64,000 bases of DNA from positions 5,041 through 69,040 of the forward strand of contig JAHIRB010000018.1 in the NCBI GenBank assembly GCA_018818885.1, in the 5' to 3' direction. Each line of letters opens with the position of its first letter. Within the stretch, counting starts at the first letter, position 1. The notes beneath the pieces are model-generated. The model did no database searches. It saw nothing but the letters and a program-made list of their open reading frames with translations, and was not told the DNA's origin. Below, one piece after another: positions 12,454 to 50,302 of this stretch. The DNA comes from Patescibacteria group bacterium (lineage in GTDB: Bacteria; Patescibacteriota; Patescibacteriia; Buchananbacterales; SURF-54). A program made the translations under genes and the position numbers.

Positions 12454-12542
12454 CTTAATACGGGATTTTGGATTCCCGCCTGCCCCGTAAACGACTCTGA
12501 GTTTATCGAATAGAGTTTTACGGGGTTACCCGCTCCATGATA

Positions 12543-21850: not shown

Positions 21851-21938
21851 CCGCCTGCGGCGGATGCGCCCGCTTCGACTCCGAAGAGAGGCGAGCCTCT
21901 GGCGCAGAACCTTAAACCTAGAACATTCAAAACCAATA

Positions 21939-22012
21939 AGGCCTGGACGGGATTCGAACCCGTGAATAGAGGTTTTGCAGACCCCCGCCTTAGACCACTT
22001 GGCTACCAGGCC
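21939..22012 (-). tRNA. tRNA-Cys (anticodon GCA)
   Basis: rc reads GGCCTGG-TA-GCCAAGTGGTCTAAGGC-GGGGT-CTGCAAA-ACCTC-...ACGGG-TTCGAAT-CCCGT-CCAGGCC-T. Flanked by a perfect 14-bp inverted repeat CATTCAAAACCAAT/ATTGGTTTTGAATG. Folded by hand. Confidence 0.75.
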
Positions 22013-22036
22013 ATATTGGTTTTGAATGATTATTAT

Positions 22037-22136
22037 GCGAATAGAGGTTTTGCAGATTTACCCCGCAAAATGAGTCACGTTACGTATAACTGAATTTCTG
22101 CGGGGCTTCCGCCTTAGACCACTTGGCTACGTGACC
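22037..22136 (-). pseudogene. tRNA-Cys-like 5' half with an altered acceptor arm, a 52-nt hairpin insertion and no T-arm
   Basis: rc GGTCACG-TA-GCCAAGTGGTCTAAGGC, then hairpin CCCCGCA...TGCGGGG, then TCTGCAAAACCTCTATTCGC. D-arm and anticodon loop are identical to tRNA-Cys. Confidence 0.35.
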
Positions 22137-22722: not shown

Positions 22723-22833
22723 ATTATACTATTTATTATATTATAGTTTACAACATTCGCAATTTAATCTACCATAAGCCATCCTTGATTTATTTAAGCA
22801 TTTGTAGTAGACTCAAGTAGTATAAAAAAATAT

Positions 22834-22975
22834 ACCCGGTAGTAGAATTTCAAATTAAAAGTATGTTATAAAAATTTTACATCGGTTATATATATTATTG
22901 ATTACTTAATATGTTTAATAACAGATATCGAATATATATGCAAAAAAATAACTATTTGAAATTTCACTACCGGGT
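22834..22975 (+). promoter_or_regulatory. 22-bp inverted repeat pair (ACCCGGTAGTAGAATTTCAAAT / ATTTGAAATTTCACTACCGGGT) bracketing the infB 5' region
   Basis: Arms at 22834-22855 and 22954-22975, 21/22 complementary. The second arm abuts the infB ATG. A third copy of the core is at 42132-42150. Confidence 0.3.
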
Positions 22976-26301: not shown

Positions 26302-26390
26302 ATTAGCGATAGGGCGATAAAGCGATAAAGCGATAAAGTTAATTGGAGATGAAAAATTTTGAAAACTCCATCGCTCCATCGCTTTATAAC
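26302..26390. repeat. inverted repeat built from tandem AGCGATAAAG-like octamers
   Basis: AGCGATAGGGCGATAAAGCGATAAAGCGATAAAG ... CCATCGCTCCATCGCTTTAT. Confidence 0.4.
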
Positions 26391-26410
26391 TCTATTAACT
26401 CAACAAAACT

Positions 26411-29688: not shown

Positions 29689-29770
29689 ATTACGAATTAC
29701 CAATCAATACGAATATACGAATAGATAATACGTAATTTGTATATTAGTTTAAATTCGTAATTGGTATTAA
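29689..29770. repeat. palindromic intergenic repeat, copy B (AATTACGAATTACCAATCAATACGAATATACGAAT ... ATTTGTATATT...AATTCGTAATTGGTAT)
   Basis: Same arm sequences as copies A and C. Lies between rny and the YmdB-like gene. Confidence 0.6.
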
Positions 29771-33932: not shown

Positions 33933-34009
33933 ATAATTAATGTGATTAATAGTTATGTAGATATTTTGGGTTGAGTGTACAAATGATAAACGATGAAAAA
34001 TAAAATAAT

Positions 34010-34038
34010 GCGGGTCTACCAGGCTGAGCTATGGGCGC
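34010..34038 (-). pseudogene. truncated 5' fragment of tRNA-Lys (acceptor plus D-arm only)
   Basis: rc GCGCCCATAGCTCAGCCTGGTAGACCCGC, about 90% identical to the 5' 27 nt of tRNA-Lys and lying 5'-upstream of it. Confidence 0.4.
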
Positions 34039-34064
34039 ATATTTAAGAGGACTATTATTATAAG

Positions 34065-34137
34065 CGCGCCCGGTAGGAGTCGAACCTACAACCCCTTGGT
34101 CCGAAGCCAAGTGCTCTATCCATTAAGCTACGGGCGC
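34065..34137 (-). tRNA. tRNA-Arg (anticodon TCG)
   Basis: rc GCGCCCG-TA-GCTTAATGGATAGAGC-A-CTTGG-CTTCGGA-CCAAG-GGGTT-GTAGG-TTCGACT-CCTAC-CGGGCGC-G. Folded by hand. Confidence 0.75.
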
Positions 34138-34143
34138 ATAAAT

Positions 34144-34410
34144 TTATTTTTTTAATGAATTTTTTATTCTTACTTTTAAGAATTCTCTTTGTTGACCTTT
34201 ATTTTTTATCTCTAACTCACGTTTCCTAGCATCTGTTTTAGAAATATATGCTTCATAGTAAACAAGTGATAATGGCCTTCTGCTTTTAGTTGATTTCACT
34301 TTGCCAGTATTATGATCGACTACTCGTTTTTTAAGATCTCCACTTATACCATAATATAGTTCATTATCCAACTTACTTTTTAAGACATAGAAATAATATA
34401 TATTAAACAT
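34144..34410 (-). CDS. GIY-YIG nuclease-domain protein (YhbQ/UPF0213-like)
   Basis: 88 aa. YYFYVLKSKLDNELYYGISGDLKKRVVDHNTGK..STKSRRPLSLVYYEAY matches the GIY-YIG consensus. Confidence 0.75.
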   Translation of the reverse strand: MFNIYYFYVLKSKLDNELYYGISGDLKKRVVDHNTGKVKSTKSRRPLSLVYYEAYISKTDARKRELEIKNKGQQREFLKVRIKNSLKK

Positions 34411-34454
34411 TTATTCATTTGGTCCGCCCGCCTGCGGCGGGTCCGCCGTAGGCG

Positions 34455-34488
34455 GAAAGCCAAGCGCTCTATCCAGTTGTCCCGACGC
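34455..34488 (-). pseudogene. degenerate tRNA-Arg-like D-arm-region fragment upstream of the GIY-YIG gene
   Basis: GAAAGCCAAGCGCTCTATCCAGTTGTCCCGACGC versus tRNA-Arg GAAGCCAAGTGCTCTATCCATTAAGCTACGGGCGC. Embedded in GC-rich hairpins (CCGCCTGCGGCGG). Confidence 0.3.
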
Positions 34489-34596
34489 AAGGTCGGGATC
34501 CCGACTTCAATATAAAAATATTATATCGTCGGGAAGCTACAGGTGCAAAAAAGTATTACGTAATATATCATATTATACAAAATAAATCAAGAAGAC

Positions 34597-34616
34597 CCCA
34601 AAGGAAGGGGTTTTTT
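34597..34616. terminator. hairpin CCCC-AAAGGAA-GGGG with a T-run, downstream of pilT
   Basis: A/T runs on both sides, so it may act bidirectionally. Confidence 0.4.
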
Positions 34617-34636
34617 GGTATCAGATATGATTTTTT

Positions 34637-35671
34637 CTATTTTGTAGGAACAGAAAGATTAAATTCTAAAGTTTCTTTATCAATTAGATTTTCTTTTTGC
34701 AGTCTTGTTAAATCTTGATCCATGGTAAACATTCCTTCGTCTGCACTGGTCTGTACTACAGTTTTTATTTGAGCAATTTTGTTTTCTCTAATTAGATTAG
34801 AAATCGCAGGAGTATTAACTAAAATTTCTCTGGTGGCTATTCTTCCCCCGCCCTGCTTAGGGATAAGTCTTTGTGAAATAATTCCTTTTAGAGTCATAGA
34901 AAGCTGTAGCCTAATTTGTGCTTGTTGGTGCGAAGGAAATATATCAATAATACGATCAACAGTCTGAGCTGAGTTATGTGTATGTAATGTAGCAAACACT
35001 AGATGTCCTGTTTCAGCTAAAGTAATGGTAGTAGCAATGGTTTCTAAATCTCTCATTTCTCCAACCATAATGACATTTGGGTCTTGTCGCAACACATGTA
35101 TCAAAGCATTATTGAAATTGACCATATCTGTATGCAGTTGTCTTTGTTTGATAATACTTTTGTTTGATTTGAAGATAAATTCAATTGGGTCTTCTAGCGT
35201 TACAATATGTTCGGAACGTTCATTATTAATATGGTTAATTATTGAAGCTAAAGTAGTTGATTTACCGCAACCCGTAGGTCCAGTAACTAAAATTAATCCT
35301 TGATTCAAACTAATTAAATCAAAAACAATTTGCGGCATTTGCAATTCTTCCATTGTTGGAATTTTGGTGGGAATAATTCTTGCCACTAGTCCAATATTTC
35401 CTTTTTCTTGATGAACATTAACTCTAAAACGAGCAGTTTCTCCAATTTCATACGAAAGATCTAGTTCCTTTGTCTCGTCAAAAATTGTTTTTTGTCGTTC
35501 TGACATTAAGCCATAAATCATGCTTTCAGCCGTTTTGTCGTTTACTACTGGTTCATCAGTTTGTGGAGTTAGTTTACCGTCGATTCTAAAAACTGGTGAC
35601 ATTCCAACAATCAAATGAATATCAGAAGCGTTTTTTTCAGCTGCTTTTTTAAAAAGTGTATCAATAGACAT
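34637..35671 (-). CDS. pilT: type IV pilus retraction ATPase PilT
   Basis: Walker A GPTGCGKSTT, Asp box and His box. 344 aa. Confidence 0.85.
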   Translation of the reverse strand: MSIDTLFKKAAEKNASDIHLIVGMSPVFRIDGKLTPQTDEPVVNDKTAESMIYGLMSERQKTIFDETKELDLSYEIGETARFRVNVHQEKGNIGLVARIIPTKIPTMEELQMPQIVFDLISLNQGLILVTGPTGCGKSTTLASIINHINNERSEHIVTLEDPIEFIFKSNKSIIKQRQLHTDMVNFNNALIHVLRQDPNVIMVGEMRDLETIATTITLAETGHLVFATLHTHNSAQTVDRIIDIFPSHQQAQIRLQLSMTLKGIISQRLIPKQGGGRIATREILVNTPAISNLIRENKIAQIKTVVQTSADEGMFTMDQDLTRLQKENLIDKETLEFNLSVPTK

Positions 35672-35752
35672 AGTTTTGTAGTTAATGAAGTTATAAAGTT
35701 AATGAAGTATTTTTTAAACTACATTAACTTCATCTCTCCATCACCCTATACT

Positions 35753-36445
35753 CTACTTCCAGCCTTTTTTCTTTAAAGCATTTGCTGCGGCATCAATTTG
35801 CCCCTCTTGCTTAGAAGATCCAATGCCAGTAGCAATTTTTTCTGCTTCTAGAAACACCGCCATTTTAAACTTTTTGTTATGGTCTGGACCTGTTTCTTCA
35901 ATCACTTTATAGTTTGGTGTAATGCCAACTTTCTCTTGGGCAATTTCTTGGAACTTACTTTTTGGATCAATATATAGTTGATTTTTTAAAATGTAATCAA
36001 GTTGGGAAATTAGATTCTTCTCTAGAAATTTTTTTGTTTTGATAAAACCCAGGTCTAAATACATAGCACCAATTAAAGCCTCAAAAGCATTAGCCAAAAT
36101 AAATTGGCGAGCTTTGGTATTTTTATCTTTAGATTCCCCCTTACTTAGTAGTATGTGGTCATCAAGTTCAAATTGTTTACCTAGCGTGGCAAGCATTTTA
36201 CTATTTACTAAGCTGGCGCGCCAATTGGTAAGCTCTCCTTCTGGATTTGGATAGTTTTGATATAAGTATTCAGTAACTGCCAACTCTAATGCAGCATCAC
36301 CTAAAAACTCTAGACGTTCATTGTGGTCTATACCAAAATTAGGATGTTCATTCAGATATGAACGATGAACCAATGCTTGTTGCAATATTTTTGAATCTTT
36401 AAATTTTACCCCGAGTTTTTTTTGAAGTTGAGTTAAATCTTTCAT
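35753..36445 (-). CDS. rnc: ribonuclease III
   Basis: ERLEFLGDAALE RNase III signature and a C-terminal dsRBD. Confidence 0.9.
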   Translation of the reverse strand: MKDLTQLQKKLGVKFKDSKILQQALVHRSYLNEHPNFGIDHNERLEFLGDAALELAVTEYLYQNYPNPEGELTNWRASLVNSKMLATLGKQFELDDHILLSKGESKDKNTKARQFILANAFEALIGAMYLDLGFIKTKKFLEKNLISQLDYILKNQLYIDPKSKFQEIAQEKVGITPNYKVIEETGPDHNKKFKMAVFLEAEKIATGIGSSKQEGQIDAAANALKKKGWK

Positions 36446-36525
36446 TATTATTAACTCCTTTGAAGTTATCAGTAGAGAAATACCCTACATCTTAAGAGTG
36501 TATCACTCTGCTGATAGCTAATTTA

Positions 36526-36990
36526 TTATTTAGCATCTTTTTTACTTTCTGGTTTATCTTTTGATTCTTCTTTTTCGTCTACCTTATCTTTATATATGCT
36601 TCCCAGCACCCCGTTTACAAATTTTCCAGAAGAATCTCCACCAAAAGCTTTGGCTAGTTCAATGGATTCGTTGATAGCAACTTTAGCTGGGATGTCTTGA
36701 TCATAAAGCATTTCGTAAATTCCCATCCTTAGTGCATTTCTATCAACTATCGTAATTTGTTCAATAGGCCATTCTGGGGCGTACTCAATAATATACTTAT
36801 CAATTTGATTTAAGTATTTTAGGAGGCCTACAATAAGCTCATCAATAAAACCCTTGTCGTCGAATTCTGGAGCAAATTCAGAAAGATTTCTTTTTACCAT
36901 AGAAGGCAATTGGCCTTCTGGTTTTTCGTTGAAGTCCCACTGGTAGAGTGATTGTAAAACTATGGTGCGTGCTAAGTGTCTATTAGACAT
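36526..36990 (-). CDS. nusB: transcription antitermination factor NusB
   Basis: [15 protein letters not shown]-terminus and NusB length. K/E/D-rich tail. Confidence 0.85.
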
Positions 36991-37011
36991 AAAGGTACAA
37001 AAAAGATCAAG

Positions 37012-37227
37012 TTATTTTTTTTCTGATTTTTTAGATTTAGATTTCTTTTCATCCTTAAATTTAATAACATCCCGGCCATTGTATACTCCGCAATTAGGGC
37101 AGGCATGGTGTGGTCGGATTGGTTTATCACATTTAGGACATTTAACTAATTTAACTTTTTTTAGGGCAAGATGCGATCTTCGGCGTTTTCCCGCAGACGC
37201 TGGTCTTTTCTTGGCTGGTACAGACAT
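37012..37227 (-). CDS. rpmF: 50S ribosomal protein L32 with a Lys-rich C-terminal extension
   Basis: AVPKKRTS-like start (SVPAKKRPAS), KCPKCDKPIRPHHACPNCGVY zinc ribbon. Confidence 0.85.
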   Translation of the reverse strand: MSVPAKKRPASAGKRRRSHLALKKVKLVKCPKCDKPIRPHHACPNCGVYNGRDVIKFKDEKKSKSKKSEKK

Positions 37228-37293
37228 AGGTTAAAATTTCTAATTACTAATTAATAATTTCTAATAGGTAAAGTATAGGATATTTTTTTGAGT

Positions 37294-37322
37294 TTGACAA
37301 GTATGACATTTTTTAATAAGGT
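37294..37322 (+). promoter_or_regulatory. promoter-like TTGACA-17-TAAGGT upstream of the three-gene small-ORF operon
   Basis: Identical hexamers and spacing recur at 52699-52727. Confidence 0.4.
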
Positions 37323-37349
37323 ATTAGCACAAATGAAAGGGGGTCGCAC

Positions 37350-37568
37350 ATGCCTACATATATAGCATTTGAGATAATACAAGAAGGAGGTATGGCAGCA
37401 GAAATAATCGATAAAGCAGATAGTATAATGGAAGCGGTTCAAAGAACCAAAGTAGTTCGGCTTTATGCAGTCAAACTGTTGGGTGATTGTCCTGGACATG
37501 ATTTTATGCCAGCACAAAGTGATTGTGGAATCACAGAATTTTGTCAGATTTGCGCAGAGATCAGATAA
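37350..37568 (+). CDS. small Cys/His protein with one copy of a CPxH...CxICxE domain
   Basis: 72 aa. AAAGGGGGT SD 5 nt upstream. VKLLGDCPGHDF...EFCQICAEI. Confidence 0.5.
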   Translation: MPTYIAFEIIQEGGMAAEIIDKADSIMEAVQRTKVVRLYAVKLLGDCPGHDFMPAQSDCGITEFCQICAEIR

Positions 37569-37587
37569 TTAGAACAGGGGGGTATTG

Positions 37588-37953
37588 ATGAATGGCAAAA
37601 ATCTTGAACTTCAAAACCAGAATGAGAACATAAAACATGCGGGTTGGTGGGGCATAGCCTCATGTCTTATTTTCTCAGCAGCATTGTTGTATTATATTTT
37701 TGCTCTTATATTTAATATACTCTCGGTTTTTGAAGCAAGAGAGGAAGGGCAATATTATACAGCTTATGCTATTTTGTTTGCCATCTTCTTTTTACTCGGT
37801 TGGGTAATCAGTATGATTGGCACAGTTGTTGGATTCTATGGATTGTGTCAGAGTCACAGGAAAAAAATGTTTGCCGTTATTAGTACAATTCTCAACTCGT
37901 TGATTTTTTGGGGAACTATCGTACTATTTTATTGGGCGTCGAAGTTCAACTAA
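37588..37953 (+). CDS. small 4-TM membrane protein, middle gene of the operon
   Basis: GGGGGG SD. About 121 aa with four hydrophobic helices. Confidence 0.45.
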   Translation: MNGKNLELQNQNENIKHAGWWGIASCLIFSAALLYYIFALIFNILSVFEAREEGQYYTAYAILFAIFFLLGWVISMIGTVVGFYGLCQSHRKKMFAVISTILNSLIFWGTIVLFYWASKFN

Positions 37954-37970
37954 ACAAGGAGGAGATTTAG

Positions 37971-38387
37971 ATGCCAGAATTTAGTGTTCATGTAGTGTTG
38001 AGCGCAAGTACATTTAAGAATGCATTAAAAATGGCCATTCGTGACGGTTGTCCTGGCGCTCCCGAAGTCGTGATAATTGGAGGATGCCCAGATCACAAAA
38101 TCGAACCTCCAGAACCATCTGCACCATATTCCTTAGAGTTGTCTTTTTGCCGGATATGCGGCGAAAGAAGCATGAGTGATAATCCAATGCACGTATATCA
38201 AGCAGAACGAGAAGACAACGTGCGTAGTATCGGCGCACACTCTTTCAGAGATGCTGTGGAAACAGCGAAAGTCGCATTGGGAGGATCTGTTGAGGTAAAA
38301 CTCGTAGGAAAATGCCCCAAGCATAAGTTCGTACACTTGGATGCTCCGATTAACGAGGTTTGCGAAATTTGCGGGCACATGCAGTAG
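37971..38387 (+). CDS. small Cys/His protein with two tandem CPxH...CxICxE domains
   Basis: 138 aa. AAGGAGGAG SD 6 nt upstream. IIGGCPDHKI...FCRICGE and LVGKCPKHKF...VCEICGH repeat the domain of ORF 37350. Confidence 0.5.
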   Translation: MPEFSVHVVLSASTFKNALKMAIRDGCPGAPEVVIIGGCPDHKIEPPEPSAPYSLELSFCRICGERSMSDNPMHVYQAEREDNVRSIGAHSFRDAVETAKVALGGSVEVKLVGKCPKHKFVHLDAPINEVCEICGHMQ

Positions 38388-38419
38388 GTCACAAGCGACC
38401 AACTAAAAACCCCAGGTCA

Positions 38420-38459
38420 ATCAACGTTTTGGCCTGGGGTGTTGTTTTTGACCTCCCCC
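38420..38459 (+). terminator. intrinsic terminator CCCCAGG...CCTGGGG plus TGTTGTTTTT
   Basis: 7-bp GC stem and a T-rich tail ending the three-gene operon. Confidence 0.5.
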
Positions 38460-38608
38460 TGTCCTCCCCCTCGAAGAGGGGGAGGGACTCGTTTAAGTAT
38501 GTAATGTGTAAAAATAATGTCTGACTACTACAAACTTACAAACATCCTTAACCGAGTTCCCCCTCCTTTATAAGGAGGGGGACAGGGGGAGGTCAAAATA
38601 CAAAAAGC
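38456..38608. mobile_element. MITE-like element with perfect 17-bp terminal inverted repeats (TTTTGACCTCCCCCTGT / ACAGGGGGAGGTCAAAA)
   Basis: Each terminal repeat abuts an internal C8/G8 hairpin (CCTCCCCC-TCGAAGA-GGGGGAGG and CCCCCTCC-TTTATAA-GGAGGGGG). About 70 bp of AT-rich core. No ORF. Confidence 0.35.
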
Positions 38609-38618
38609 AAGGCTTCTA

Positions 38619-38640
38619 AGCCTCGGCTTTTGTATGTCAT
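38619..38640. terminator. hairpin AAGGCTTCTAAGCCTCGGCTTTT, terminator for gyrA on the minus strand
   Basis: On the minus strand the stem is followed by TTTTTGTATTTT. Confidence 0.45.
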
Positions 38641-38677
38641 TAATAACAGTCTGAAGACTGTTATTCCGTTAATAATT

Positions 38678-41293
38678 TTATATAAAGGTGACTGTTGCTA
38701 CAGAATCACCACCTTCTTTAAATCTCATCAACCTGACACCTTGAGTTGCTCTACCTATCACGTTAACTGTTTTAAGTGGCAATCTAATAACTTGCCCTTT
38801 TTTAGAAATAATAATTGCGTCTTCATCTACTGCTTTAGAATTTACTACACTAAAGTATACAATCTTTCCTGTCTTTGGGGTAATTTTCGCAGTTTTGATT
38901 CCAGAACCACCTCTACCTTGGGTTTTAAACGAACCTAGTACACTTCGTTTACCAAAACCATTTTCCATCACCACTAAAACTTGTCCAACTTTTGTCAAAA
39001 CTGAATCAATAATATCCATGCCTACAACATCGTCACCTGCTTTTAGTCGAATTCCTCTAACGCCACCAGCTCCTCTACCCATAGATCTAACACTTGATTC
39101 TTTGAATTTAATTGCTTGGCCGTCTGCTGTTACAAGCATGATGTCGTCTTTTCCTGTTGAAGGTTTTACCCATTCGAGTTCATCTTTTTTACGTAAGCGT
39201 ATAGCAATTAAACCTGAACGTCTTACATTATCAAGATCAGAAATAACAACTTTTTTAGTGAATCCATTCTTGGTAACCATGACTAAGAATTTATAATCTG
39301 CTAATTCAGTCAATGGTAATATCGAAGTTACCTTTTCGTCGGAACTAAGTTGCAAGAAATTTACAATTGCTTGTCCCTTTGAGGTTCTAGAAGTTTGTGG
39401 AATGTCGTAAGCTTTAAGTTGGAATACACGTCCGGTGGTAGTAAAAAATAGTACATCTGAATGTGTCATAGTAGTAAAGAAGTGTTCTACGAAGTCTTCT
39501 TCCTTAGTAGTTAATCCAATAACACCTTTACCACCACGCGTTTGTGTTTTAAAAGTATCAGGAGGTAGACGCTTAATATAACCAGCTTGCGTCATGGTAA
39601 TGATTGTTTCTTCGTTTGGAATTAAATCTTCTTGTTTAAATTCTTTGACACTGCCAGCAACAATTTCTGTTCTACGTTTATCGCCAAACTTTTCTTTTAT
39701 TTCGGTTAATTCTTTTTTGATTACACCCAAAATTTTTGCAGGAGATTTAAGTAGTGCTTCTAATTCTTTTATCAAATCTTTCTTTTCTTTTAGTTCTTGT
39801 TCCACCTTTAGTCTTTCAAGTCCAGCTAGTTGTTGCAACTTCATTTCCAAAATTGCCACGGATTGTCGTTCGGATAATTTAAATTTCTTAATCAAATTAA
39901 TTTTGGCAACTTCCCTATCTTTTGATTTTTTGATTGTACTTATGATGGCATCAATTTTTATTAGCGCCATCCTCAATCCTTCTAGAATATGTGCTCTATC
40001 TTTTGCTTTGGCTAGGTCGTATTCTGCTCTACGTCTGACCACTTCCTGTCTATGTTTAATATATTCTTCTAATACCATTTTCAACGTCAAAACTCGAGGC
40101 TGAATACCATCAACAAGCGCTAACATGTTGACGTGAAAAGTTGTCTGAAGATCAGTTAGTTTAAAAAGTCGATTTAAAATCTTTTTAGGATAAGTATCTT
40201 TTTTTAGTTCAATGACTACTCGTACTCCATCTTTTGAAGATTCATCACGTAAATCTTTTATACCTTCGATTTTTTTGTCTTTGATTAATTCTGCCAATCT
40301 TTCTAAAACAGTTGCCTTGTTAACTTGATACGGAACTTCTGATACAAGTATTCTATGTGCTCCTTTGTGTTCTACAATTTCAGTTTTTGCACGCATTACA
40401 ATGCCACCTTTTCCTGTGGCGTATGCTTGTTTTATTTCTTTTGCATCGTAAATAATAGCACCAGTTGGAAAATCTGGGCCTTTAACATACTGCATTAAAT
40501 CGTCTACGTTAGCATCTTTGTTATCAATTAAATGTATGATTGCATCAACTAGTTCTGATAGGTTATGCGGTGGGATATTGGTTGCCATTCCAACTGCAAT
40601 GCCTAAAGTACCGTTTAAGAGCAAGTTGGGCAGTTTTGCTGGCATGACTAGTGGTTCTTTTATGGTACCGTCGTAATTTGGACTAAAGTTAACGGTATCT
40701 TTATCAATATCATTTAAAAGTTCATCTGCAATACTTTCAAGTTTTGCTTCTGTGTAACGCATAGCAGCAGCGCGGTCGCCATCCATAGAACCAAAATTAC
40801 CTTGGCCATTAACCAAGGGATAACGTAAGGAAAATTCTTGTGCCATCCTAACCATGGAATCGTAAACTGCAGTATCACCATGAGGATGGTATTTACCTAA
40901 AACTTCACCAACTACTGTAGCAGATTTTCTAAACTTCGCAGAAGATCTAAGACCAATAGTCCACATAGCATATAAAATACGTCTGTGAACTGGTTTTAAA
41001 CCGTCACGCACATCTGGTAAAGCGCGAGCAACAATAACAGACATAGCATAGTCGAGATAGCTTTCTTTTACCTCGTCCACAATGGGTCGTTTTTGCACTT
41101 TACCGACACCTGCTTGTTCTACAACTCCGTTTACAGTCAAAGCTTGTTCTAGTGGAGCTTCTTTTGGTTTTTCAGCCTTCTTGTTTTTAGGTTTAGCACT
41201 AGCTTGCTTTTTGGAAGCAGGCTTTTTGGTGGGCTGTTTTCCGCCAGAGGCGGATCGGCCTTTGGAGGATTTAGTTGTTTTATTCTTCGGCAT
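38678..41293 (-). CDS. gyrA: DNA gyrase subunit A with a roughly 60-aa Lys-rich N-terminal extension
   Basis: [33 protein letters not shown] GyrA N-terminal motif, preceded by [39 protein letters not shown]... 871 aa. Confidence 0.9.
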
Positions 41294-42041
41294 TATTTAA
41301 GTTAGTAAATTGTATTGTTGAAATAATATTATTTTGATTTTTGCATGCTTGCTGATTATTGCATCTAAAAATATAAGTGTTTTTATTGTTATCGATTAAT
41401 ATGCTACGCACTTTAATTTTATCTATATCACCTGTGAGTGCAGGAATTTCGTATTCAATTATGGTAAAATCGTTTTGTCCATATGTTACAGATGTCACCT
41501 CAGTGTTTTCATATTTTTTTAGAATATCTGCAATTTTAACACCTAGTGTGGTAGAAGAAATTTCCAATACAATTTCTACTGGGCAATTATCGTACATTGG
41601 AGTTTTCCCAAAACTCGTGATATTTTCGTTTTTTATAAATTCGTAATCAGGTGGGTATTTAAATGTGATTCTTTCATTTTCATCATTGTAAATTTGCCAG
41701 TCTGGATTATTTGCTAACGCTTTTTTTATTTTTTGAATTTGTTCTGGAGTTAGAAGTAGTTCGCTTTCTATACCCGCGAGGTTTTGTTCTTGATCTAATT
41801 CGGTTTTAATTTCTTCGAATTGCTGTTTTGCTTCGTTGAATACATCTCCTAGCTCATCAGCTACTTGTTGTAATTGGCTTGGTTGATTTTGGTCTTGTTT
41901 AGTTGATTTAGAAAAATTAAAAGCTAAACTTATCAACCAAATGATAATTATGATTGCGGTCAAAACCATTACAGAAATAAACAGGATCTGTTTTCTTACA
42001 GCCAAAGGAAGTTTTTCGATTTTTGATTGCTTCTTTGGCAT
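41280..42041 (-). CDS. hypothetical N-terminally anchored protein
   Basis: 253 aa with one TM helix and a Q/E-rich coiled region. Overlaps the gyrA start by 14 nt. Confidence 0.4.
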
Positions 42042-42159
42042 ACCTGGTAGTGAAAATTTAATAATTAATATTTATGTAATTATATAGTATTAAATTTTTT
42101 ATTCATCCCCGATAATAAAGAGAAACTGATTAAATTTCTACTACCGGGCATATGAATTT

Positions 42160-42810
42160 TTAGGTATTAGCCAAAACAAATACTTTCATTTCTTCTGTTG
42201 GTAAATCTTTTTTTGTAATTTTTAATTTTGGCATTTTATCTGTTGAACACACCCCAATTTCTTTACAGAATTTATCAATGGATTCTAAATTTACTTTTAA
42301 TCCCTTCACTTTATAATGCATAGGTATTACTATTCTTGGTTCAATTTGCGAAATTACTTGCGAAGCCTCCTTGGCATTAATGGTATATGTTCCCCCTACA
42401 GGAATCATCAAAATATCTACACTTTTTAATTTTTCAAGCTGGCCATTGGATAGATTATGTCCTAAATCACCAAGATGAACCAAACTCATACCCTCTGCTT
42501 CTATACGATAAATAGTGTTTGTTCCTCTATCTGTTCCTTCCTTTGTGTCGTGATACGAAGGTATGCCGTAAATAAAAACTCCTTTTGCTTCGTATTCGCC
42601 TGGACCAGATACAATAAATGGTTTTTCACCCTCAATTCCTCGAATTGCAGAGATATTATTATGATCTTTGTGGTCGTGTGTAACCAAAACTAAATTAGCA
42701 CCAAAGTGTGGTACTTTTAACCCAATACTATTATCATATGGATCAATAGCTAAGATTGTATTGTTGGTTTGAATCTTAAAACAAGCTTGACCCAACCATG
42801 TGATTTGCAT
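42160..42810 (-). CDS. MBL-fold metallo-hydrolase
   Basis: VTHDHKDH (HxHxDH) and a downstream His/Asp. 216 aa. Confidence 0.75.
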   Translation of the reverse strand: MQITWLGQACFKIQTNNTILAIDPYDNSIGLKVPHFGANLVLVTHDHKDHNNISAIRGIEGEKPFIVSGPGEYEAKGVFIYGIPSYHDTKEGTDRGTNTIYRIEAEGMSLVHLGDLGHNLSNGQLEKLKSVDILMIPVGGTYTINAKEASQVISQIEPRIVIPMHYKVKGLKVNLESIDKFCKEIGVCSTDKMPKLKITKKDLPTEEMKVFVLANT

Positions 42811-42811
42811 A

Positions 42812-42898
42812 GGTTACAAATTACGAATTAATACGAATATACGAATAGGCTTAAATTTCGCATTTGTATATTTGTATGTATTCGTAATTCGTACATTC
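42812..42898. repeat. palindromic intergenic repeat, copy C (AAATTACGAATTAATACGAATATACGAAT ... ATTTGTATATTTGTATGTATTCGTAATTCGTA)
   Basis: Same arms as copies A and B. Starts 2 bp upstream of the MBL-hydrolase start codon. Confidence 0.6.
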
Positions 42899-43198
42899 TA
42901 ACGAAAAATTCGGGCTATAAACCCACTACTATTTTAACATATTTTACTCTTTTTTTAAAGACCATTTGTGGGTATTTTGTGGTTAAATAATTGGCTAAAT
43001 TAAGATAAAATAATTAAGATATTTCAGACATTCAAACTAGTCTTTTGCAACTTTTCTTACTTGACATAAATATCATTATACTATAGTATAAAATGTACCT
43101 GTAAATTATAAATTTCATAAGCTAATTAATCCCGCAAAGTGGGAGCTTGGTTCACAGAATTGAATCGGGTTAAAGCAATTTTTTTTATTGCATTATTT

Positions 43199-44581
43199 AT
43201 GACTAAAACTACAGATACCAAGAGTAAAAAAACAATTGATGACTCACAAAAAAGCGAGTTTAAGAAGTTAATGGAAACTGGTGATTTTGTTAAATTGCCA
43301 AATGTTGGTGATTTAGTAAAAGGTAAATTAATTACAATTTCCAAGTCCGAAGCTCATGTTGATATTGACGGCCTAACAACAGGTATTGTACGAGGACGCG
43401 AATTTTTTGATGAAGCCTCAGAAGCCAAAGGATTAAAACCCGGTGATGTTGTAGAAGCAACTGTTTTAGAATTAGAAAATGAAAACGGAGAAATGGAACT
43501 TAGTTTTAGATATGCTGGACATCAAAAAGCTTGGGAAGAATTAAATAAATTTTTAGAATCTGGTGAAGTAGTCAAGGCCAAGATTATGGATGCCAATAAG
43601 GGTGGTCTAATGGTCAAGATAAATATGGTGCAAGGATTTTTACCTGTTTCTCAACTTTCAACAGAACACTACCCACGTGTGCCTGGTGGAGATAAGAATA
43701 AAATTTTAGAAAGATTAAAATCATACATTGGACAAAGTTTTAATGTTAAAATTATTACTGCACAAGACGAAGAAGACAAACTTATAGTATCTGAAAAATC
43801 TGTTTGGGATGAACAGCAAAAAGATATTATTGCTAAGTTTAAAGTTGGAGAAAAGGTTGAAACAAAAATTACCGCAGTTACAGATTTTGGAGTTTTTGTT
43901 GAATTTGGTGAAAAGTTAGAAGGCTTAGTTCATATTTCCGAACTTGCATGGCAAAGAATTGATGACCCTAGATTACATTTTAAAGTTGGAGAAAAGAAAA
44001 AAGCAGAAATTATTACTGTTGATGGATCTAAAATATTTCTTTCCTTTAGAAAATTAATTCAAGATCCTTGGCACGATGTAGATAAAAAATACAAAATAGG
44101 ACAAATTGTAAAAGGAAAAGTTATCAAAACAAATCCATTTGGAGTGTTTGTAGAACTTGATGCTGATATTCATGGCCTAGCTCACATATCCGAACTTGCA
44201 GATAAACCAATTGCTAATCCAGACGAAATTGCAAAACCAGGCGATATGTTAAATTTTAAAATCTTATCTATAGAACCAGTCAATCACAGACTAGGCCTAA
44301 GTCTAAAAGGTGCAAAAGCAAAGTCAAAAACATTATCTAAGCAAGAAGTAAAGTCAGGCGAGGAAGTTAAGCAAGATGGAGAAAAGCCGAAATTAGTCGA
44401 AAAGGTTGATGCAGTTAATACAGTTGATAAAGATCAGGAGCAAAAAAAAGTTTCTGAAAAGTCAGAAACAAAAAAAGAGAAGTTAGATTCCAAAAGTCCT
44501 TCGACAAGCTCAGGACAAGAGAAAAAATCAGATACCAAAAGTAAAAAAGCTGGCAACAGCAAGGATGATGGCAAGAAATAA
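43199..44581 (+). CDS. rpsA: 30S ribosomal protein S1
   Basis: Four or five S1 domains (GxV...G.VHISE) and a K/E-rich C-terminal tail. Start set at the internal Met (MTKTTD). Confidence 0.85.
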   Translation: MTKTTDTKSKKTIDDSQKSEFKKLMETGDFVKLPNVGDLVKGKLITISKSEAHVDIDGLTTGIVRGREFFDEASEAKGLKPGDVVEATVLELENENGEMELSFRYAGHQKAWEELNKFLESGEVVKAKIMDANKGGLMVKINMVQGFLPVSQLSTEHYPRVPGGDKNKILERLKSYIGQSFNVKIITAQDEEDKLIVSEKSVWDEQQKDIIAKFKVGEKVETKITAVTDFGVFVEFGEKLEGLVHISELAWQRIDDPRLHFKVGEKKKAEIITVDGSKIFLSFRKLIQDPWHDVDKKYKIGQIVKGKVIKTNPFGVFVELDADIHGLAHISELADKPIANPDEIAKPGDMLNFKILSIEPVNHRLGLSLKGAKAKSKTLSKQEVKSGEEVKQDGEKPKLVEKVDAVNTVDKDQEQKKVSEKSETKKEKLDSKSPSTSSGQEKKSDTKSKKAGNSKDDGKK

Positions 44582-45109
44582 CGAAATTAGTGCATAAGGA
44601 AACAACATAGCAGCATTAAGATATAAAGCTAAAAGAATTAAAACAAGGCCTACTACTTGCATAAACATCTTAAACTTTCCCCAGATATTTGCCGAAATAT
44701 CAATACCTCTTTTTCTTCTGCTCCAACCAGTAATAATAAACGCAAATTCAAAAATAATTACTGTCATGGTAGTCCAAAAAAAGTATTTTATGGCAACGAT
44801 AATCAATGATGACCCAATTAGTAGTTTATCTGCTAAGGGGTCGAATGCTTTACCCCAGTCTGTAATTTGATTTCTTGTTCTTGCCATGGAGCCATCAATA
44901 GCATCAGTTAAAGCTACACCAATTAAGAAAGGTACACCAATTGAATAGTTTTCTAGCCATAAAAGATAAACAACAATTGGGGATAGTACAAATCGTAATA
45001 TTGTGACATGATTTGGCTTAATCCATTTTGGGATAAATGGCAAAATTGTGTATTTAAGAATAAAGTCTTGCGGATACAATTTTGGGCTAGAATTAGATAA
45101 GTTTTGCAT
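44528..45109 (-). CDS. CDP-alcohol phosphatidyltransferase (PgsA-like)
   Basis: DAIDGSMARTRNQITDWGKAFDPLADK (D-G-x2-A-R-x8-G-x3-D-x3-D). 3' end overlaps rpsA by 54 nt. Confidence 0.75.
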   Translation of the reverse strand: MQNLSNSSPKLYPQDFILKYTILPFIPKWIKPNHVTILRFVLSPIVVYLLWLENYSIGVPFLIGVALTDAIDGSMARTRNQITDWGKAFDPLADKLLIGSSLIIVAIKYFFWTTMTVIIFEFAFIITGWSRRKRGIDISANIWGKFKMFMQVVGLVLILLALYLNAAMLFPYALISLFLAIILAVASFFTFGI

Positions 45110-45192
45110 ATTAATATCATTATACGTTCAATCTACATCTTTTACAACTTACTTGTTCAAAATAAAAAAAAATAGTATAATCAAAATACTTT

Positions 45193-47025
45193 ATGCGACA
45201 ATTTTCAAAAAACTTTCTTATATTTTTGATCATCTTTTTTGTTTTGGCTGGTTTAGCAAGTATGCTAACCCCTTCTTTAGAAAAACAAGATAAAACGGAT
45301 ATCTCAACCTTGATAGCTCAAATAAACAACGAAGAGGTAGAATCTATTGAAGTTTCTGGCAATAAATTAACAATAAAGTTAAATGATGGGACTAAAGAAA
45401 CAGTTCAAAAAGAAGGAGCAGAATCATTAACAGCGCTGCTAAAAAATTACGAGGTATCAAGCGCCAAAATTCAAAAAATAGATATAGCAGTAAAAGATGA
45501 AAGTGGGCTGGCTTTTTGGTTAATTACTCTTTCGCCAATTTTGATTCCCCTTTTGCTTTTTATAGGTATCATATACTTTATGATGAGGCAGGTTCAGGGT
45601 GCTAATTCACGTGCAATGATGTTTGGAAAAAGTAAAGCAAGAGAAGTATCAAATCAACTAACCACAAAAGAAAAAACCACCTTCAAAGATGTTGCAGGTG
45701 TTAAGGAAGCTAAGGAAGAATTAGATGAAGTAGTCGATTTTTTAAAAAATCCAAAAAAGTTTATTAACGTAGGAGCTAAAATTCCTAAAGGTGTGTTACT
45801 GGTTGGTCCTCCTGGCACAGGAAAAACATTGCTTGCTAAAGCGGTGTCTGGTGAAGCTGGAGTGCCATTTTTTAATATCTCTGGTTCTGAATTTGTAGAA
45901 ATGTTTGTGGGTGTTGGAGCGTCTCGCGTTAGGGATTTGTTTCATAAGGCAAAGAAGAGCTCTCCTTGTATTGTTTTTATTGATGAACTCGACGCAGTTG
46001 GGCGTCAAAGAGGTGCAGGATTGGGTGGATCAAACGACGAACGTGAACAAACTCTAAATCAGATATTAGTTGAAATGGATGGTTTTGATGTAAACACAAA
46101 CATTATTGTGATAGCAGCAACTAATCGTCCTGATGTTTTGGATGCTGCACTACTACGTCCAGGCAGATTTGATCGTAGAGTTGTTCTAGATTTTCCAGAT
46201 ATTGCAGATAGAGAAGCAATTCTAAAAGTACATGCAAAAAATAAACCAATAGTTAAAGAAGTTGATCTTAGAAAAATCGCTGCACGTACCCCAGGCTTTA
46301 CAGGAGCAGATTTAGCAAATCTTTTAAACGAAGCTGCTATTTTAACAGCCAGAAAAGATAAGAAACAAGTAGACGAAACAGCAATTTTAGAAAGTATCGA
46401 AAAAGTAATGCTTGGCCCAGAAAGAAAAAGCCATATTCTTAATGAACAGGAAAGAAAAATAACTGCCTATCACGAAGCTGGTCACGCCTTGGTGGCACAT
46501 GAACTACCTAATGCAGATCCAGTACATAAAGTTTCCATAGTATCACGTGGACGCGCAGCTGGTTACACCTTAAAATTACCAACCGAAGATAAACATCTTC
46601 ATACTAGAGCAGAATTTATTGATGATTTAGCCGTCTTTTTAGCAGGCCATACTACAGAAAAAGAAATTTTTGGTGATATCTCTACAGGTGCATCAAACGA
46701 TCTAAAGCAAGCTACGCGCTTAGCTCGAAGATTGATTATGGAATATGGTATGTCAGAAAATTTAGTTCCAAGAACATTTGGTGAAAAAGAAGAATTAATA
46801 TTTCTGGGGAGAGAAATACACGAACAACGCGATTATAGTGAAAAAGTAGCAGAAGTTATTGATGAAGAAATTAGTCACTTAATTAGCGAAGCCAGAAAAA
46901 CAGCCTTAAATATTATCAAAAAGAAAAAAACAAAATTAGAAGAAATTGTTAAAATATTACTAGAGAAAGAAGCTATAGAAAAAGATGAGTTTGAAAAAAT
47001 ATTTGGCAAAAAAACAAAAGAATAA
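45193..47025 (+). CDS. ftsH: ATP-dependent zinc metalloprotease FtsH
   Basis: Two TM helices, AAA module ([12 protein letters not shown] second-region motif) and an HEAGH zinc site. 610 aa. Confidence 0.9.
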
Positions 47026-47040
47026 ATAAAACATCATTAT

Positions 47041-48003
47041 ATGACTACCTACAAAGAAGTTTTCAAAAAATCTTTTAAATTAGCTTGGAAACCTAAAAGT
47101 ATATGGATTTATGGTTTATTCGCTTCTTTTTTAGGTATTGGAGGAAGTGTAGCAAAAAGTATGGATTTAACTGGTAGCCGTAATATTTTGATAAATTTAT
47201 TGCAAACACTCATAGAGGTTAACTTTTTTTCTTTACAAGCTTTAAAAAACATACCAACGGTTTTTGCACAAAGTCCAATTTCTGTTACTATTTCAGTTTT
47301 GATTTTTTTAATTGTTACAGTTTTGACAATTATTTTGTTGATTTTAGCAATTGTATCACAATCAACTCTTATTAATACAATATATAAAAAGAGTATAGGC
47401 AAAAAAGTAAGTTATATCGAGGGAATTTCTTTTGGACTAAATAATTTTTGGCCAATACTTGGGTTAAATGTGATAACGCGAGCCGTAGGATTTATTGCTT
47501 TTATGTTTTTAGTCTATGTCGTCGCAGCTAGCAGACCATCACTTTTTGTTCCTCTGGGTATAATATATATTATTTTAGTTTTGATCACAGTTGTGATTTC
47601 ATTTGTTATACGTTATGCAACCTGCCACCTCGTTATTAATGGTGATACATTTAAAAATTCCCTTCACAAAGGAAAAGAACTATTTCTTTCGAACTGGCTA
47701 ATTACCTTCGAAGTAGCATTAATGTTGTTGATTATCCAGATGGTATTTGTTTTTTTGTTGTATCTTTTGATAAAAATTGATACCTTTGTTTTATACATAA
47801 TTTTTGTAGCAACAAATTTATTACAAGCTGCTGGTGCTTCAAACTTTGTACTCTTTTTAGTTTTGTTTACAGTTACATTAATTACTTTGCTTTTTTTAAG
47901 TTTCTTTACAGTTCTTGCATGGTCTGTATGGACAGAGCTAACCTTAGAGCTAGAGAAGGGAAATATTACAAGTAAAATCAAGAGTTGGTTGAAGATAGCT
48001 TAG
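47041..48003 (+). CDS. hypothetical polytopic membrane protein
   Basis: 320 aa with 7-8 hydrophobic helices. No family recognised. Confidence 0.4.
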   Translation: MTTYKEVFKKSFKLAWKPKSIWIYGLFASFLGIGGSVAKSMDLTGSRNILINLLQTLIEVNFFSLQALKNIPTVFAQSPISVTISVLIFLIVTVLTIILLILAIVSQSTLINTIYKKSIGKKVSYIEGISFGLNNFWPILGLNVITRAVGFIAFMFLVYVVAASRPSLFVPLGIIYIILVLITVVISFVIRYATCHLVINGDTFKNSLHKGKELFLSNWLITFEVALMLLIIQMVFVFLLYLLIKIDTFVLYIIFVATNLLQAAGASNFVLFLVLFTVTLITLLFLSFFTVLAWSVWTELTLELEKGNITSKIKSWLKIA

Positions 48004-48103
48004 CATATATCTTTAGATTATTATAAACACCAGGTTAGTTCCTGGTGTTTTTACTTGTAAGAATTACTAAAAAAAACTATAATTAAAGTAAGTATAATAA
48101 TAT

Positions 48104-49834
48104 ATGACTCAAATAAATCCAAAAGCTCCCCTGCCTTCTAATATGCCAGAGATATCATCAGAAGAGGTAAAAGAAAAGTATAAAAAGAAAATGTTTGATA
48201 TTCGTATTAGACAGAAAGAAACAGAATCTAACGAAATTGCCAGACAGATGGGTATACAACATATTAATTTAAAAGCTTTTCCTATTAGTCCGGAAACTTT
48301 AACTACGATAGAAGAAGAAACTTCTAAAAAACTTCAAGCGATTTGTTTTTATCGTGATGACGATGCTATTAGGATAGGTGCAGTAGATCCAACTACAGCA
48401 GGAGTCAAAGAGGAAATTGAAGCAATTAAAGAAAGGACTGCCAAAAAAATTGTAGTTTATAAAATTTCCGAACACAGCTATGATCTTGCCTTTAAGTTGT
48501 ATGCCGTACTGCCAAAATTTAGAGAAGTATTAACAGGTGTAGAAATAACAGAAGCAGATGTTAAGCGATTTGAACAAGAACTCAAAACTTTTAAAGATTT
48601 AAGCACAGCACTTGAAAGAATAAATTTAACAGATATGGTTGCTTTGATTATCGCAGGAGCTATAAAAGTAGCTGCCTCTGATATCCATATCGAAGCAGAA
48701 TCAAAGGAAATAAAAATACGTTACAGAATTGATGGATTTTTACACGACGCTGCAACAATAAAAAAATCTTTATGGACTAAAATAATCGCTAGAGTAAAAC
48801 TTGTTGCACATCTAAAAATTAATGTTACCGATCGGCCTCAAGATGGACGATTTACAATTTTTATGGGAGAAGAACAAATTGATGTTAGAGTATCTACTGT
48901 ACCAACTGCTTACGGCGAAAGTGTAGTTATGAGAATTTTGATTTCTTCTAAACAAGGCTTAGCTTTTGAGGATTTAGGTTTAAGAGGTAAAGCTTTTATT
49001 GATCTAGAAGCAGAAGTGAAAAAACCAAATGGCATGATTATTGCCACGGGTCCAACTGGTTCTGGTAAAACCACTACACTCTATTCAATTTTAATGAAGG
49101 TAAACACACCAGGAAATAAAATATTAACTTTAGAAGACCCTGTTGAATATAGAATTTCAGGTATTTCACAAAGCCAAGTTGATGCATCTAAAGAATATAC
49201 TTTTGCCAAAGGCTTGCGTTCACTTCTTAGACAAGATCCAGACATAATTATGGTTGGTGAGGTTAGAGATTTAGAAACTGCAGACATATCAATTAACGCA
49301 GCACTAACTGGTCATCTTGTTACAACAACTTTGCACACTAACGATGCCTCTGGTGCAATTCCGCGTTTAATAGCAATGGGAGTAAAATCATTTTTATTAC
49401 CACCCGCACTTAATGCAATCATTGGACAAAGGCTTGTACGTAAGATTTGTCCTAAATGTAAAACAGAAATTGAGTTAGACAACAAATTAATGTCTACGGT
49501 AATGAAAATAATTGATATGATCCCTCAGGAATCTGGAACAAAACCAAAGAGTTTAAAAAATTTACAATTTTATAAAGGTAAAGGATGCGATTATTGCCAA
49601 GGTATTGGTTATAAAGGAAGAATTGGTATTTTTGAAATCATGACTATGAATCACGAATATGAACCTCTAATACTTTCTGGTCAGGTTTCAGAATACGATT
49701 TAAAAAAGATTGCTTTAAAGCATGGCATGGTAACCATGGTGCAAGATGGATTGCTTAAAGCAATGGACGGTTTAACATCAGTTGAAGAAGTATTTAGAGT
49801 AGCAAAAGATATTTCTGGTTTGTTGGGTGATTAA
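48104..49834 (+). CDS. pilB: type II/IV secretion ATPase, GspE/PilB family (type IV pilus assembly ATPase)
   Basis: Walker A GPTGSGKTTT, Asp and His boxes, and a C-terminal tetracysteine CPKC...CDYC. 576 aa. Confidence 0.85.
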   Translation: MTQINPKAPLPSNMPEISSEEVKEKYKKKMFDIRIRQKETESNEIARQMGIQHINLKAFPISPETLTTIEEETSKKLQAICFYRDDDAIRIGAVDPTTAGVKEEIEAIKERTAKKIVVYKISEHSYDLAFKLYAVLPKFREVLTGVEITEADVKRFEQELKTFKDLSTALERINLTDMVALIIAGAIKVAASDIHIEAESKEIKIRYRIDGFLHDAATIKKSLWTKIIARVKLVAHLKINVTDRPQDGRFTIFMGEEQIDVRVSTVPTAYGESVVMRILISSKQGLAFEDLGLRGKAFIDLEAEVKKPNGMIIATGPTGSGKTTTLYSILMKVNTPGNKILTLEDPVEYRISGISQSQVDASKEYTFAKGLRSLLRQDPDIIMVGEVRDLETADISINAALTGHLVTTTLHTNDASGAIPRLIAMGVKSFLLPPALNAIIGQRLVRKICPKCKTEIELDNKLMSTVMKIIDMIPQESGTKPKSLKNLQFYKGKGCDYCQGIGYKGRIGIFEIMTMNHEYEPLILSGQVSEYDLKKIALKHGMVTMVQDGLLKAMDGLTSVEEVFRVAKDISGLLGD

Positions 49835-49846
49835 ATCAACTAAAAA

Positions 49847-49877
49847 AACACCTTGATAGTTTATAGGTGTTTTTTGT
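49847..49877 (+). terminator. intrinsic terminator AACACC-TTGATAGTTTATA-GGTGTT plus T6
   Basis: A-run, 6-bp stem, TTTTTTG. Confidence 0.5.
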
Positions 49878-49945
49878 ATTGAGGGATTGACATATAAATG
49901 ATATTTTGATAAGATTTTTTTGCGCGTTTAGAGAGGGGTGGAAAA

Positions 49946-50302
49946 TTGAAAAGCCAGAGTACAAAGAAGAAAGTGTCGAAGCGAATGATAAGAGTCTTAA
50001 CTTTAAGTAATATTCTTAAATTATTTCCCAAAACTCCAGAAGGCAGAAGGGCTAAGAATGCATTTCTGCAGCATTGTAAAAACTATTACCTTGAGAGAAA
50101 AAGGATGGAACAAGATCAGATTGCTAATCAAGAAACAAAAAATCCACAACGTGCAATATATCATGGACAAATTATGTCAATATTTGCATTATTACGACTA
50201 GTGCCCGGTGCAGAAAAAAAATGTCCTGCCTATAGCAAGGATCAAGTCGGTGATGCAGTAATGAAATGGTTTGCTATCAATGGCTCAGTAGATTCAAGCT
50301 GA
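49946..50302 (+). CDS. small basic protein, paralog of the convergent gene 50294-50803
   Basis: 118 aa. TTG start with a GAGGGGTGG SD. Shares FPKTPEGRRAKNAFLQHCKNYYLE with FPNTKDGRAAKDNFLKLCREYMEE of the partner. Confidence 0.4.
   Translation: MKSQSTKKKVSKRMIRVLTLSNILKLFPKTPEGRRAKNAFLQHCKNYYLERKRMEQDQIANQETKNPQRAIYHGQIMSIFALLRLVPGAEKKCPAYSKDQVGDAVMKWFAINGSVDSS

Follow-up and report, generated by a model that had tools for sequence, protein, structure and literature searches.

A strongly self-complementary 153-bp intergenic element beside gyrA in a Patescibacteria contig

What kind of element is a short, strongly self-complementary sequence that encodes nothing and lies between two convergent genes, each with a terminator of its own? 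The question is raised by a 64-kb stretch of Patescibacteria DNA (contig JAHIRB010000018.1, positions 5,041 to 69,040 of the forward strand; hereafter the window, with coordinates counted from its first letter), in which a non-coding palindromic element of 153 bp occupies positions 38446-38598, next to gyrA. The window belongs to a Parcubacteria-like metagenome-assembled genome, and its GyrA is identical to MBU1164425.1, a protein assigned to a 'Patescibacteria group bacterium', the next GyrA relatives being annotated as Parcubacteria or Buchananbacteria. [quoted passage not shown]

Anatomy, setting and relatives of the palindrome

The window contains two exact occurrences of TTTTGACCTCCCCCTGT, one on the plus strand (38446-38462) and one on the minus strand (38582-38598), with no further match at two or fewer mismatches; in a shuffle control, the mean number of matches at up to three mismatches was 0.11. 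The perfect terminal inverted repeat is 19 bp long (TTTTGACCTCCCCCTGTCC), with the left copy at 38446-38464 (+) and the right copy, its exact reverse complement, at 38580-38598 (-). The ends accordingly read TTTTGAC... and ...GTCAAAA, a terminus of the type TTTTGACCTCCCCC. Each end is followed inward by a subterminal hairpin. The left hairpin (38463-38485), recognised as an inverted repeat and in the fold, is CCTCCCCCTC-GAA-GAGGGGGAGG with a perfect 10-bp stem, and the right hairpin (38558-38582), recognised as an inverted repeat and from the alignment of the arms, is TCCCCCTCCTT-TAT-AAGGAGGGGGA with a perfect 11-bp stem. All four occurrences of CCTCCCCC in the window fall within the element, against an expectation of 0.31, and hairpins of the form CCCCC-N-GGGGG are found nowhere else in the 64 kb. 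Each arm of the element spans 57 nt, with 81% complementarity between the two and 39 nt separating them, which constitutes the longest inverted repeat of the window. GC content is 65% and 56% in the arms and 32% in the 72-bp core (38486-38557), giving 47% for the element as a whole in a window of 34% GC.

The original prediction had described this structure, which is real and far beyond chance, but had placed it at 38456-38608, 10 positions to the right of its actual coordinates. It had rightly called the terminal repeats perfect while giving their length as 17 bp, and both of its inner hairpins exist with stems longer than it claimed (10 and 11 bp), although its label of C8/G8 was wrong; the octamers of the hairpin arms are interrupted by T or A. 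Slipped-strand variation, which it had proposed for the C/G tracts, is unlikely because the longest homopolymer run is only 5. Its description of an AT-rich core lacking an open reading frame (ORF) was borne out: six-frame translation of the element revealed no open stretch of more than 30 codons and no credible ORF, the longest ATG-started one having 18 codons, and no gene is called.

Both strands are predicted to fold into the same four-way junction, consisting of an outer stem, two 10-bp hairpins and an imperfect central arm that closes an AT-rich loop; the central arm arises from the core, of which the outer 17-19 nt on each side pair imperfectly. The outer stem has 16 bp in the minimum-free-energy RNA fold, and the inverted repeat permits up to 19. 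Folding energies were -86.0 kcal/mol for the plus-strand RNA (z = -10.3), -88.1 kcal/mol for the minus-strand RNA (z = -9.5) and -47.4 kcal/mol with DNA parameters (z = -9.8), and none of 200 shuffled sequences folded as well as the element. That the predicted folds of the two strands are nearly equal suggests a palindrome at the level of DNA. When the left arm was compared with the reverse complement of the right arm, the hairpins differed at six stem positions, which amount to three compensated pairs with no one-sided change. Judged from this alignment, the pattern shows a hairpin shape preserved while its sequence changed, and hairpin-templated repair of a DNA palindrome could be another source of it, without selection. 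The shuffle control for compensated changes is uninformative with only two sequences (60 of 500 shuffles reached the observed value).

The element is not an assembly artefact, because it is internal to a 79-kb contig (ena:ERZ27247128:k141_1529105) and is reproduced in a second assembly; its two arms are, moreover, only 81% alike. In the independent Logan assembly of run SRR6514274 (L002), the first 120 nt of the element are identical, after which the short contig ends. This ending inside the element was considered as a possible signal of a repeat and found uninformative, as that assembly is made of 3-4-kb contigs and the break does not coincide with the element's boundary.

The genes on either side converge on the element: an ORF of 138 amino acids (ORF138; 37971-38387, +) and gyrA (38678-41293, -), recognised by Pfam. 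A terminator scan confirmed the placement originally proposed, between the intrinsic terminator of the small-ORF operon (38409-38440, +), which also has a U-run on the minus strand, and that of gyrA (38608-38625, -). Folded in its entirety, the spacer forms four independent structures in a row. Pfam matches around the site comprise GyrA, NusB, RNase III (35753-36445, 2 kb from the element), a PilT-like ATPase and an MBL-fold protein. A phage origin of the window was considered and rejected, as a megablast search of 37000-41500 against phages was empty and the Pfam matches are to housekeeping bacterial genes.

The 3' flank of gyrA was then compared in the three closest relatives found in the protein collection, whose GyrA proteins share 87% (L017), 82% (L018) and 83% (L019) identity with that of the window. 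The terminators of gyrA and of the convergent gene stand a few to ~30 bases apart in L017 and L018, and in L019 a single bidirectional terminator is followed by the convergent ORF. Nothing like the 153-bp element is present in these three flanks, and BLAST of the same contigs found no copy elsewhere in them. Because the gyrA flank of all three relatives is without the element, the simplest reading of these sequences is a lineage-specific insertion, that is, a gain in the window's lineage after its split from the nearest sampled relatives.

A possible MITE- or REPIN-like insertion

MITEs are shorter than 500 bp, have terminal inverted repeats of ~4-30 bp, lie in intergenic regions, give transcripts with stable folds and are flanked by direct repeats that fade with age (PMC10969869). 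In REPINs, two palindromes face each other in inverted orientation around a spacer that forms a hairpin of its own and that measures 71 or 110 bp in the common Pseudomonas classes, compared with 72 bp here (PMC3337134). The element in the window is non-coding and shorter than 500 bp, possesses terminal inverted repeats and differs in presence or absence at the orthologous site (L017, L018 and L019); the flanking direct repeats of a MITE are lacking. Like a REPIN, it contains two inverted palindromes (38463-38485 and 38558-38582), here around a 72-bp spacer whose ends pair. Its sequence matches nothing in the collections searched, whereas the kind of element is well known, and membership in either the MITEs or the REPINs is unproven.

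If the element is such an insertion, two inverted arms of ~57 nt, each with a subterminal hairpin and together enclosing an AT-rich spacer, would have been mobilised by a transposase supplied in trans. They would have entered the transcriptionally quiet gap between two convergent terminators after the split from the nearest sampled relatives, possibly together with the adjacent GC-rich orphan ORF. Because no duplication is found beside the perfect terminal repeats, the most likely enzyme would be of a sort that does not duplicate its target, such as the HUH/Y1 type that recognises hairpins in single-stranded DNA. In its present position, the element would be essentially a passenger. Were read-through of a terminator to transcribe it, the RNA would be expected to fold into a four-way junction of great stability, which could hold up exonucleases or be a substrate for the host RNase III.

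A candidate promoter is consistent with such a history. On the minus strand of the right end, TTGACC (38596-38591) and TATAAA (38572-38567) are separated by an 18-nt spacer and face inward, which by reading of the sequence gives a candidate sigma-70-like promoter at 38567-38596. The left end carries the same TTGACC but no -10-like hexamer. A consensus promoter scan, which demands T at position 6 of the -10 hexamer, did not report the pair. It is plausible that TTGACC-18-TATAAA is an inward promoter similar to those that drive the transposase from inside the left inverted repeat of insertion sequences; its presence at one end only fits an origin from an insertion sequence, and it may be what is left of the transposase promoter of a parent element.

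The possibility of joint arrival with ORF138 comes from composition. The GC content of ORF138 is 46%, compared with 34.5 +/- 4% in the other ORFs (~3 standard deviations above) and close to the 47% of the element, and both have a composition foreign to the host. Joint arrival of the two is possible; against this, the CPxH...CxxC domain that ORF138 carries as two repeats also occurs in ORF72 of the same operon.

Several results weigh against a mobile element of this kind. No target-site duplication, for which the original prediction had advised a search, was found: the flanks read GGGGTGTTG / element / TACAAAAAG, and neither a direct repeat at any plausible boundary nor a shift of the boundary that would create one could be identified. 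The perfect state of the terminal repeats suggests that the element is young or constrained, which argues against direct repeats that have faded. Neither the 64-kb window nor the 74.6-kb stretch of contig that includes it (record positions 4515-79121) contains a second copy of the element, and transposase, integrase and Y1/RAYT domains are absent among the genes called in that 74.6-kb stretch. The window also offers a measure of what a frequent repeat would look like. A multi-copy intergenic palindromic repeat of ~80 bp, built of inverted arrays of TTACGAAT/ATACGAAT units (array consensus TTACAAATTACGAATnAATACGAATATACGAAT ... ATTTGTATATTCGTAT..ATTCGTAATTCGTA), occurs in three copies in the 64 kb (8477-8559, ~29690-29765 and 42815-42893), and ATACGAAT is found 8 times in the window against 2.1 expected; a REP/MITE-like family is one possible identity for these arrays, an operator array another. 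As a repeat at ~1 copy per 20 kb is readily seen here, the 153-bp element is not of that abundance.

Searches of larger collections also count against the insertion. The exact 18-mer of the terminus, searched in 185,579 GTDB species genomes, returned 13 single chance matches within coding sequence of unrelated genomes of 45-66% GC. The same 18-mer in the JGI metagenomes returned 24 loci, 10 of which belong to an unrelated repeat family of metagenome Ga0081606 and the rest of which are chance matches, and an exact 16-mer in IMG/VR returned one conserved prophage region in addition to chance matches. No longer element bearing the terminus was recovered from these three collections. Comparison of the element with all fetched loci by blastn-short and nhmmer produced only short hairpin matches, distant blastn against plasmid and phage collections produced only short generic G/C hairpins, and a search of concatenated six-frame open stretches against 5.8 billion predicted proteins, designed to reveal copies concealed by spurious gene calls, produced nothing at E <= 10. 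Because not even the copy in the window came back from the collection scans, the host genome lies outside those collections, and within the host genome the negative results on copy number apply to the 74.6 kb of contig.

The Ga0081606 repeat (L021-L026, L035, L037, L040, L041 and L043) is abundant, breaks contigs and has its own terminus, TAGGGGCCATCCATTTATGACGTCCAC..., ~40 nt upstream. It shares with the element only a 20-21-mer (it contains the 20-mer TTTTTGACCTCCCCCTGTCC), may by its look be a eukaryotic transposon and is unrelated.

The MITE-like reading of the original prediction can thus be kept in part. Its length below 500 bp, absence of an ORF, perfect terminal repeats, subterminal hairpins, AT-rich core, intergenic position beside terminators and absence in relatives speak for it, and the missing target duplication and the lack of a second copy or a transposase in 74.6 kb speak against it. 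The further copies and the partner transposase that a MITE had led the prediction to expect were found neither in that stretch of contig nor in the scanned collections, which lack the host genome. It had named their absence from anywhere as grounds for abandoning the idea, and that absence holds as far as the searched 74.6 kb and the collections reach.

Full-text literature searches turned up no discussion of MITEs in either Patescibacteria or the candidate phyla radiation, and the papers containing both terms were on other subjects. We consider it improbable that the locus is either the first recognised member of a hairpin-bearing MITE/REPIN-like mobile family in Patescibacteria, served by an enzyme that recognises single-stranded DNA and makes no target duplication, or a lineage-specific small RNA of ~155 nt, with a four-way junction like a cloverleaf, driven by the promoter in the right end. 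If more copies exist in the host genome, the element would be a non-autonomous one that is active in a reduced Patescibacteria genome, and it would offer a handle on a transposase that works without target duplication. If it is truly single-copy, it would be a small example of a stable palindrome and an orphan GC-rich ORF arising between conserved housekeeping genes, of interest for local annotation only. In either case, no coding sequence is affected, and both neighbouring genes keep their own terminators.

Competing explanations

The candidate promoter also permits a different reading, which we regard as unlikely, namely that the locus holds a lineage-specific gene for a small structured RNA (sRNA) of ~155 nt on the minus strand. 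From a start ~7-9 nt downstream of TATAAA (38572-38567), its transcript would cross the central arm and then the left hairpin and end at the bidirectional terminator at 38443-38406, which has a U-run on the minus strand. The restriction of TTGACC-18-TATAAA to the minus strand, the other end being without a -10-like hexamer, is consistent with such a gene, as are the predicted fold of the transcript (-57.3 kcal/mol, z = -4.05) and the compensated changes that keep both hairpins perfect; the tRNA-Cys and tRNA-Gly genes of the window, with 21-23-nt flanking stems that extend the acceptor stem, indicate further that this genome tends to have long flanking stems. The promoter would lie inside the structure, however, and the transcript would omit both the right terminal repeat and the right hairpin's 5' strand, which would leave the 19 bp of perfect terminal pairing without a role in such an RNA. 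The near-equal folds of the two strands suggest a DNA palindrome instead, no Rfam family comes near its gathering score, the element is missing in the closest relatives and the candidate promoter failed the consensus scan.

A second alternative takes the location as its starting point. The element could be a barrier to transcription or RNA decay between the convergent genes, blocking read-through polymerases or 3' exonucleases or serving as an RNase III site, and in this manner insulating gyrA from the small-ORF operon. Its exact position between two convergent terminators, the chain of four independent structures in the intergenic region, the equally good fold on either strand and the RNase III gene 2 kb away (35753-36445) all agree with this proposal, and Correia and ERIC elements have been reported to affect transcripts in such ways (PMC10969869). 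Yet both genes already possess canonical intrinsic terminators, and three relatives manage without the element. The sequence after the outer stem is AAAAUAC on the plus strand and AAAAACA on the minus strand rather than a U-tract, and the scan calls no terminator inside 38446-38598. A barrier would at best be a secondary effect of an insertion and would leave the origin of the element unexplained, and as a full account of the locus it seems doubtful to us. The complex bidirectional terminator that the original prediction had held in reserve is likewise weak, given that the genes have canonical terminators of their own and that the relatives lack the element.

Least well supported among the alternatives, and in our estimation very unlikely, is a site that acts as DNA. 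It could be a cruciform that a recombinase, gyrase or a nucleoid protein recognises, or else the scar or the end of some larger integrated element with which the orphan small-ORF operon was introduced. The DNA-parameter fold (-47.4 kcal/mol, z = -9.8), the equally raised GC content of the adjacent orphan ORF138 and the nearness of the window to a likely replication terminus (gene orientation and a turn of cumulative GC skew at ~50 kb) are in its favour, but no recombinase or integrase gene occurs in the contig, the far side of the small-ORF operon carries no matching repeat, reading of the ends reveals neither attC core sites (RYYYAAC / GTTRRRY) nor a convincing dif-like core, and the skew turning point is ~12 kb distant.

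A number of known identities were also tried and rejected. At gathering thresholds, a Rfam search of the whole window passed only tRNAs; at E <= 10 on 38350-38700, the best match was MIR5380, a plant microRNA precursor, at 46.1 bits against a threshold of 150, with all others below 25, as expected of a generic long hairpin. A DNA uptake sequence was rejected, as the motif occurs nowhere else in the 64 kb. A retron msr/msd, a CRISPR array and an attC site were rejected in view of the absence of reverse transcriptase, cas genes, integrase and core sites in the contig. For an integron attC site in particular, the ends TTTTGAC... / ...GTCAAAA are without R'' (RYYYAAC) and R' (GTTRRRY), and no integrase is encoded in the contig.

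Neighbouring features and likeness to known systems

The operon that ends at the element (37350-38387) encodes ORF72, a predicted membrane protein of 121/122 amino acids and ORF138, none of which has a Pfam match. ORF72 and both halves of ORF138 have in common a zinc-ribbon-like CPxH...CxxC domain (BLASTP, 38% over 52 amino acids), and a search of 5.8 billion proteins returned no homologue of ORF138 except its own NCBI entry. Over ~34000-50300, genes change from a predominantly plus to a predominantly minus orientation, and the peak of cumulative GC skew is near 50 kb, which suggests a replication terminus within the window or close to it, at ~12 kb from the element.

Further inverted and duplicated sequences were observed elsewhere in the window. 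The tRNA-Cys gene (21939-22012, -) and the tRNA-Gly gene (12381-12454, +) are each enclosed by inverted repeats, at 21924-22028 and 12367-12466, respectively. These repeats are 21-23 nt long, are 96% and 90% complementary and lengthen the acceptor stem by ~14-15 bp into the flanks, resulting in long precursor stems. Partial copies of tRNAs are present as well, namely a copy of the tRNA-Cys anticodon arm just upstream of tRNA-Cys (~22040-22058, -), a 20-nt copy of tRNA-Gly positions 12409-12428 at 12320-12339 (+), and a truncated 5' half resembling tRNA-Lys between tRNA-Arg and tRNA-Lys (~34010-34036, -); integration or recombination events at tRNA genes may have left them as scars. A stretch of ~146 bp at 22832-22977, bounded by 24-nt inverted repeats (92% complementary) and AT-rich inside, lies immediately upstream of the ORF at 22976-24952 and overlaps its start codon; a long 5'-leader hairpin or a further palindromic insertion could account for it. 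An intergenic inverted repeat at 26309-26395 has three GCGATAAA units facing ATCGCT units, with 32-nt arms that are 78% complementary.

Among sequences in other bacteria, the left hairpin resembles intergenic hairpins of the form CCTCCCCC-loop-GGGGGAGG on replicon pGJ3-1 of Photobacterium sp. GJ3 (L062), which stand at 26 places in tandem units of ~125 nt and match over 38 nt at 87% identity, and hairpins of Azospirillum megaplasmids (L063, Azospirillum lipoferum 4B AZO_p3), which match over 25 nt at 96% identity. The matches are confined to the hairpin, come from GC-rich Proteobacteria and have E-values of 0.01-0.4, and the likeness looks like convergence on a very stable G/C stem and not like shared ancestry.

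In overall form, the element can be compared with ERIC, RUP, bcr1 and the Rickettsia palindromic elements, which are imperfect palindromes of ~100-155 bp, intergenic, often co-transcribed and stably folded. These are defined as multi-copy families, and no sequence similarity to them was found. REPINs reach tens to hundreds of copies and are associated with a single RAYT gene (PMC3337134). The element differs from them in that one copy was found, no RAYT is encoded in the 74.6 kb, its palindromes are perfect and not imperfect and 17-nt terminal repeats lie outside them. REPINs are known mainly from Proteobacteria, and no target duplication is expected of them.

The palindrome-associated transposable elements (PATEs) derived from IS200/IS605 resemble the element in having subterminal hairpins ~17 nt from each end and no target-site duplication. 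By definition, PATEs are without terminal inverted repeats, and both of their ends are recognised on the same strand. The element is, by contrast, an almost perfectly symmetrical inverted repeat with ends that are perfect over 19 bp, and on this definition it is not a PATE. The TnpA transposase of IS200/IS605 is described as recognising subterminal secondary structures (PMC6006769).

The Correia repeat-enclosed elements, which are MITEs of Neisseria, differ from the element of the window in that the latter was found as one copy, has no duplication, shares no sequence similarity with them and contains two extra perfect subterminal hairpins, which give it a four-way junction. Correia elements duplicate a TA target and carry an IHF site. 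The two are nevertheless alike in several respects, as Correia elements, which exceed 100 copies per genome, are ~100-200 bp long, intergenic and devoid of ORFs, with terminal inverted repeats, sigma-70-like hexamers in their ends and transcript hairpins that RNase III can cut (PMC10969869).

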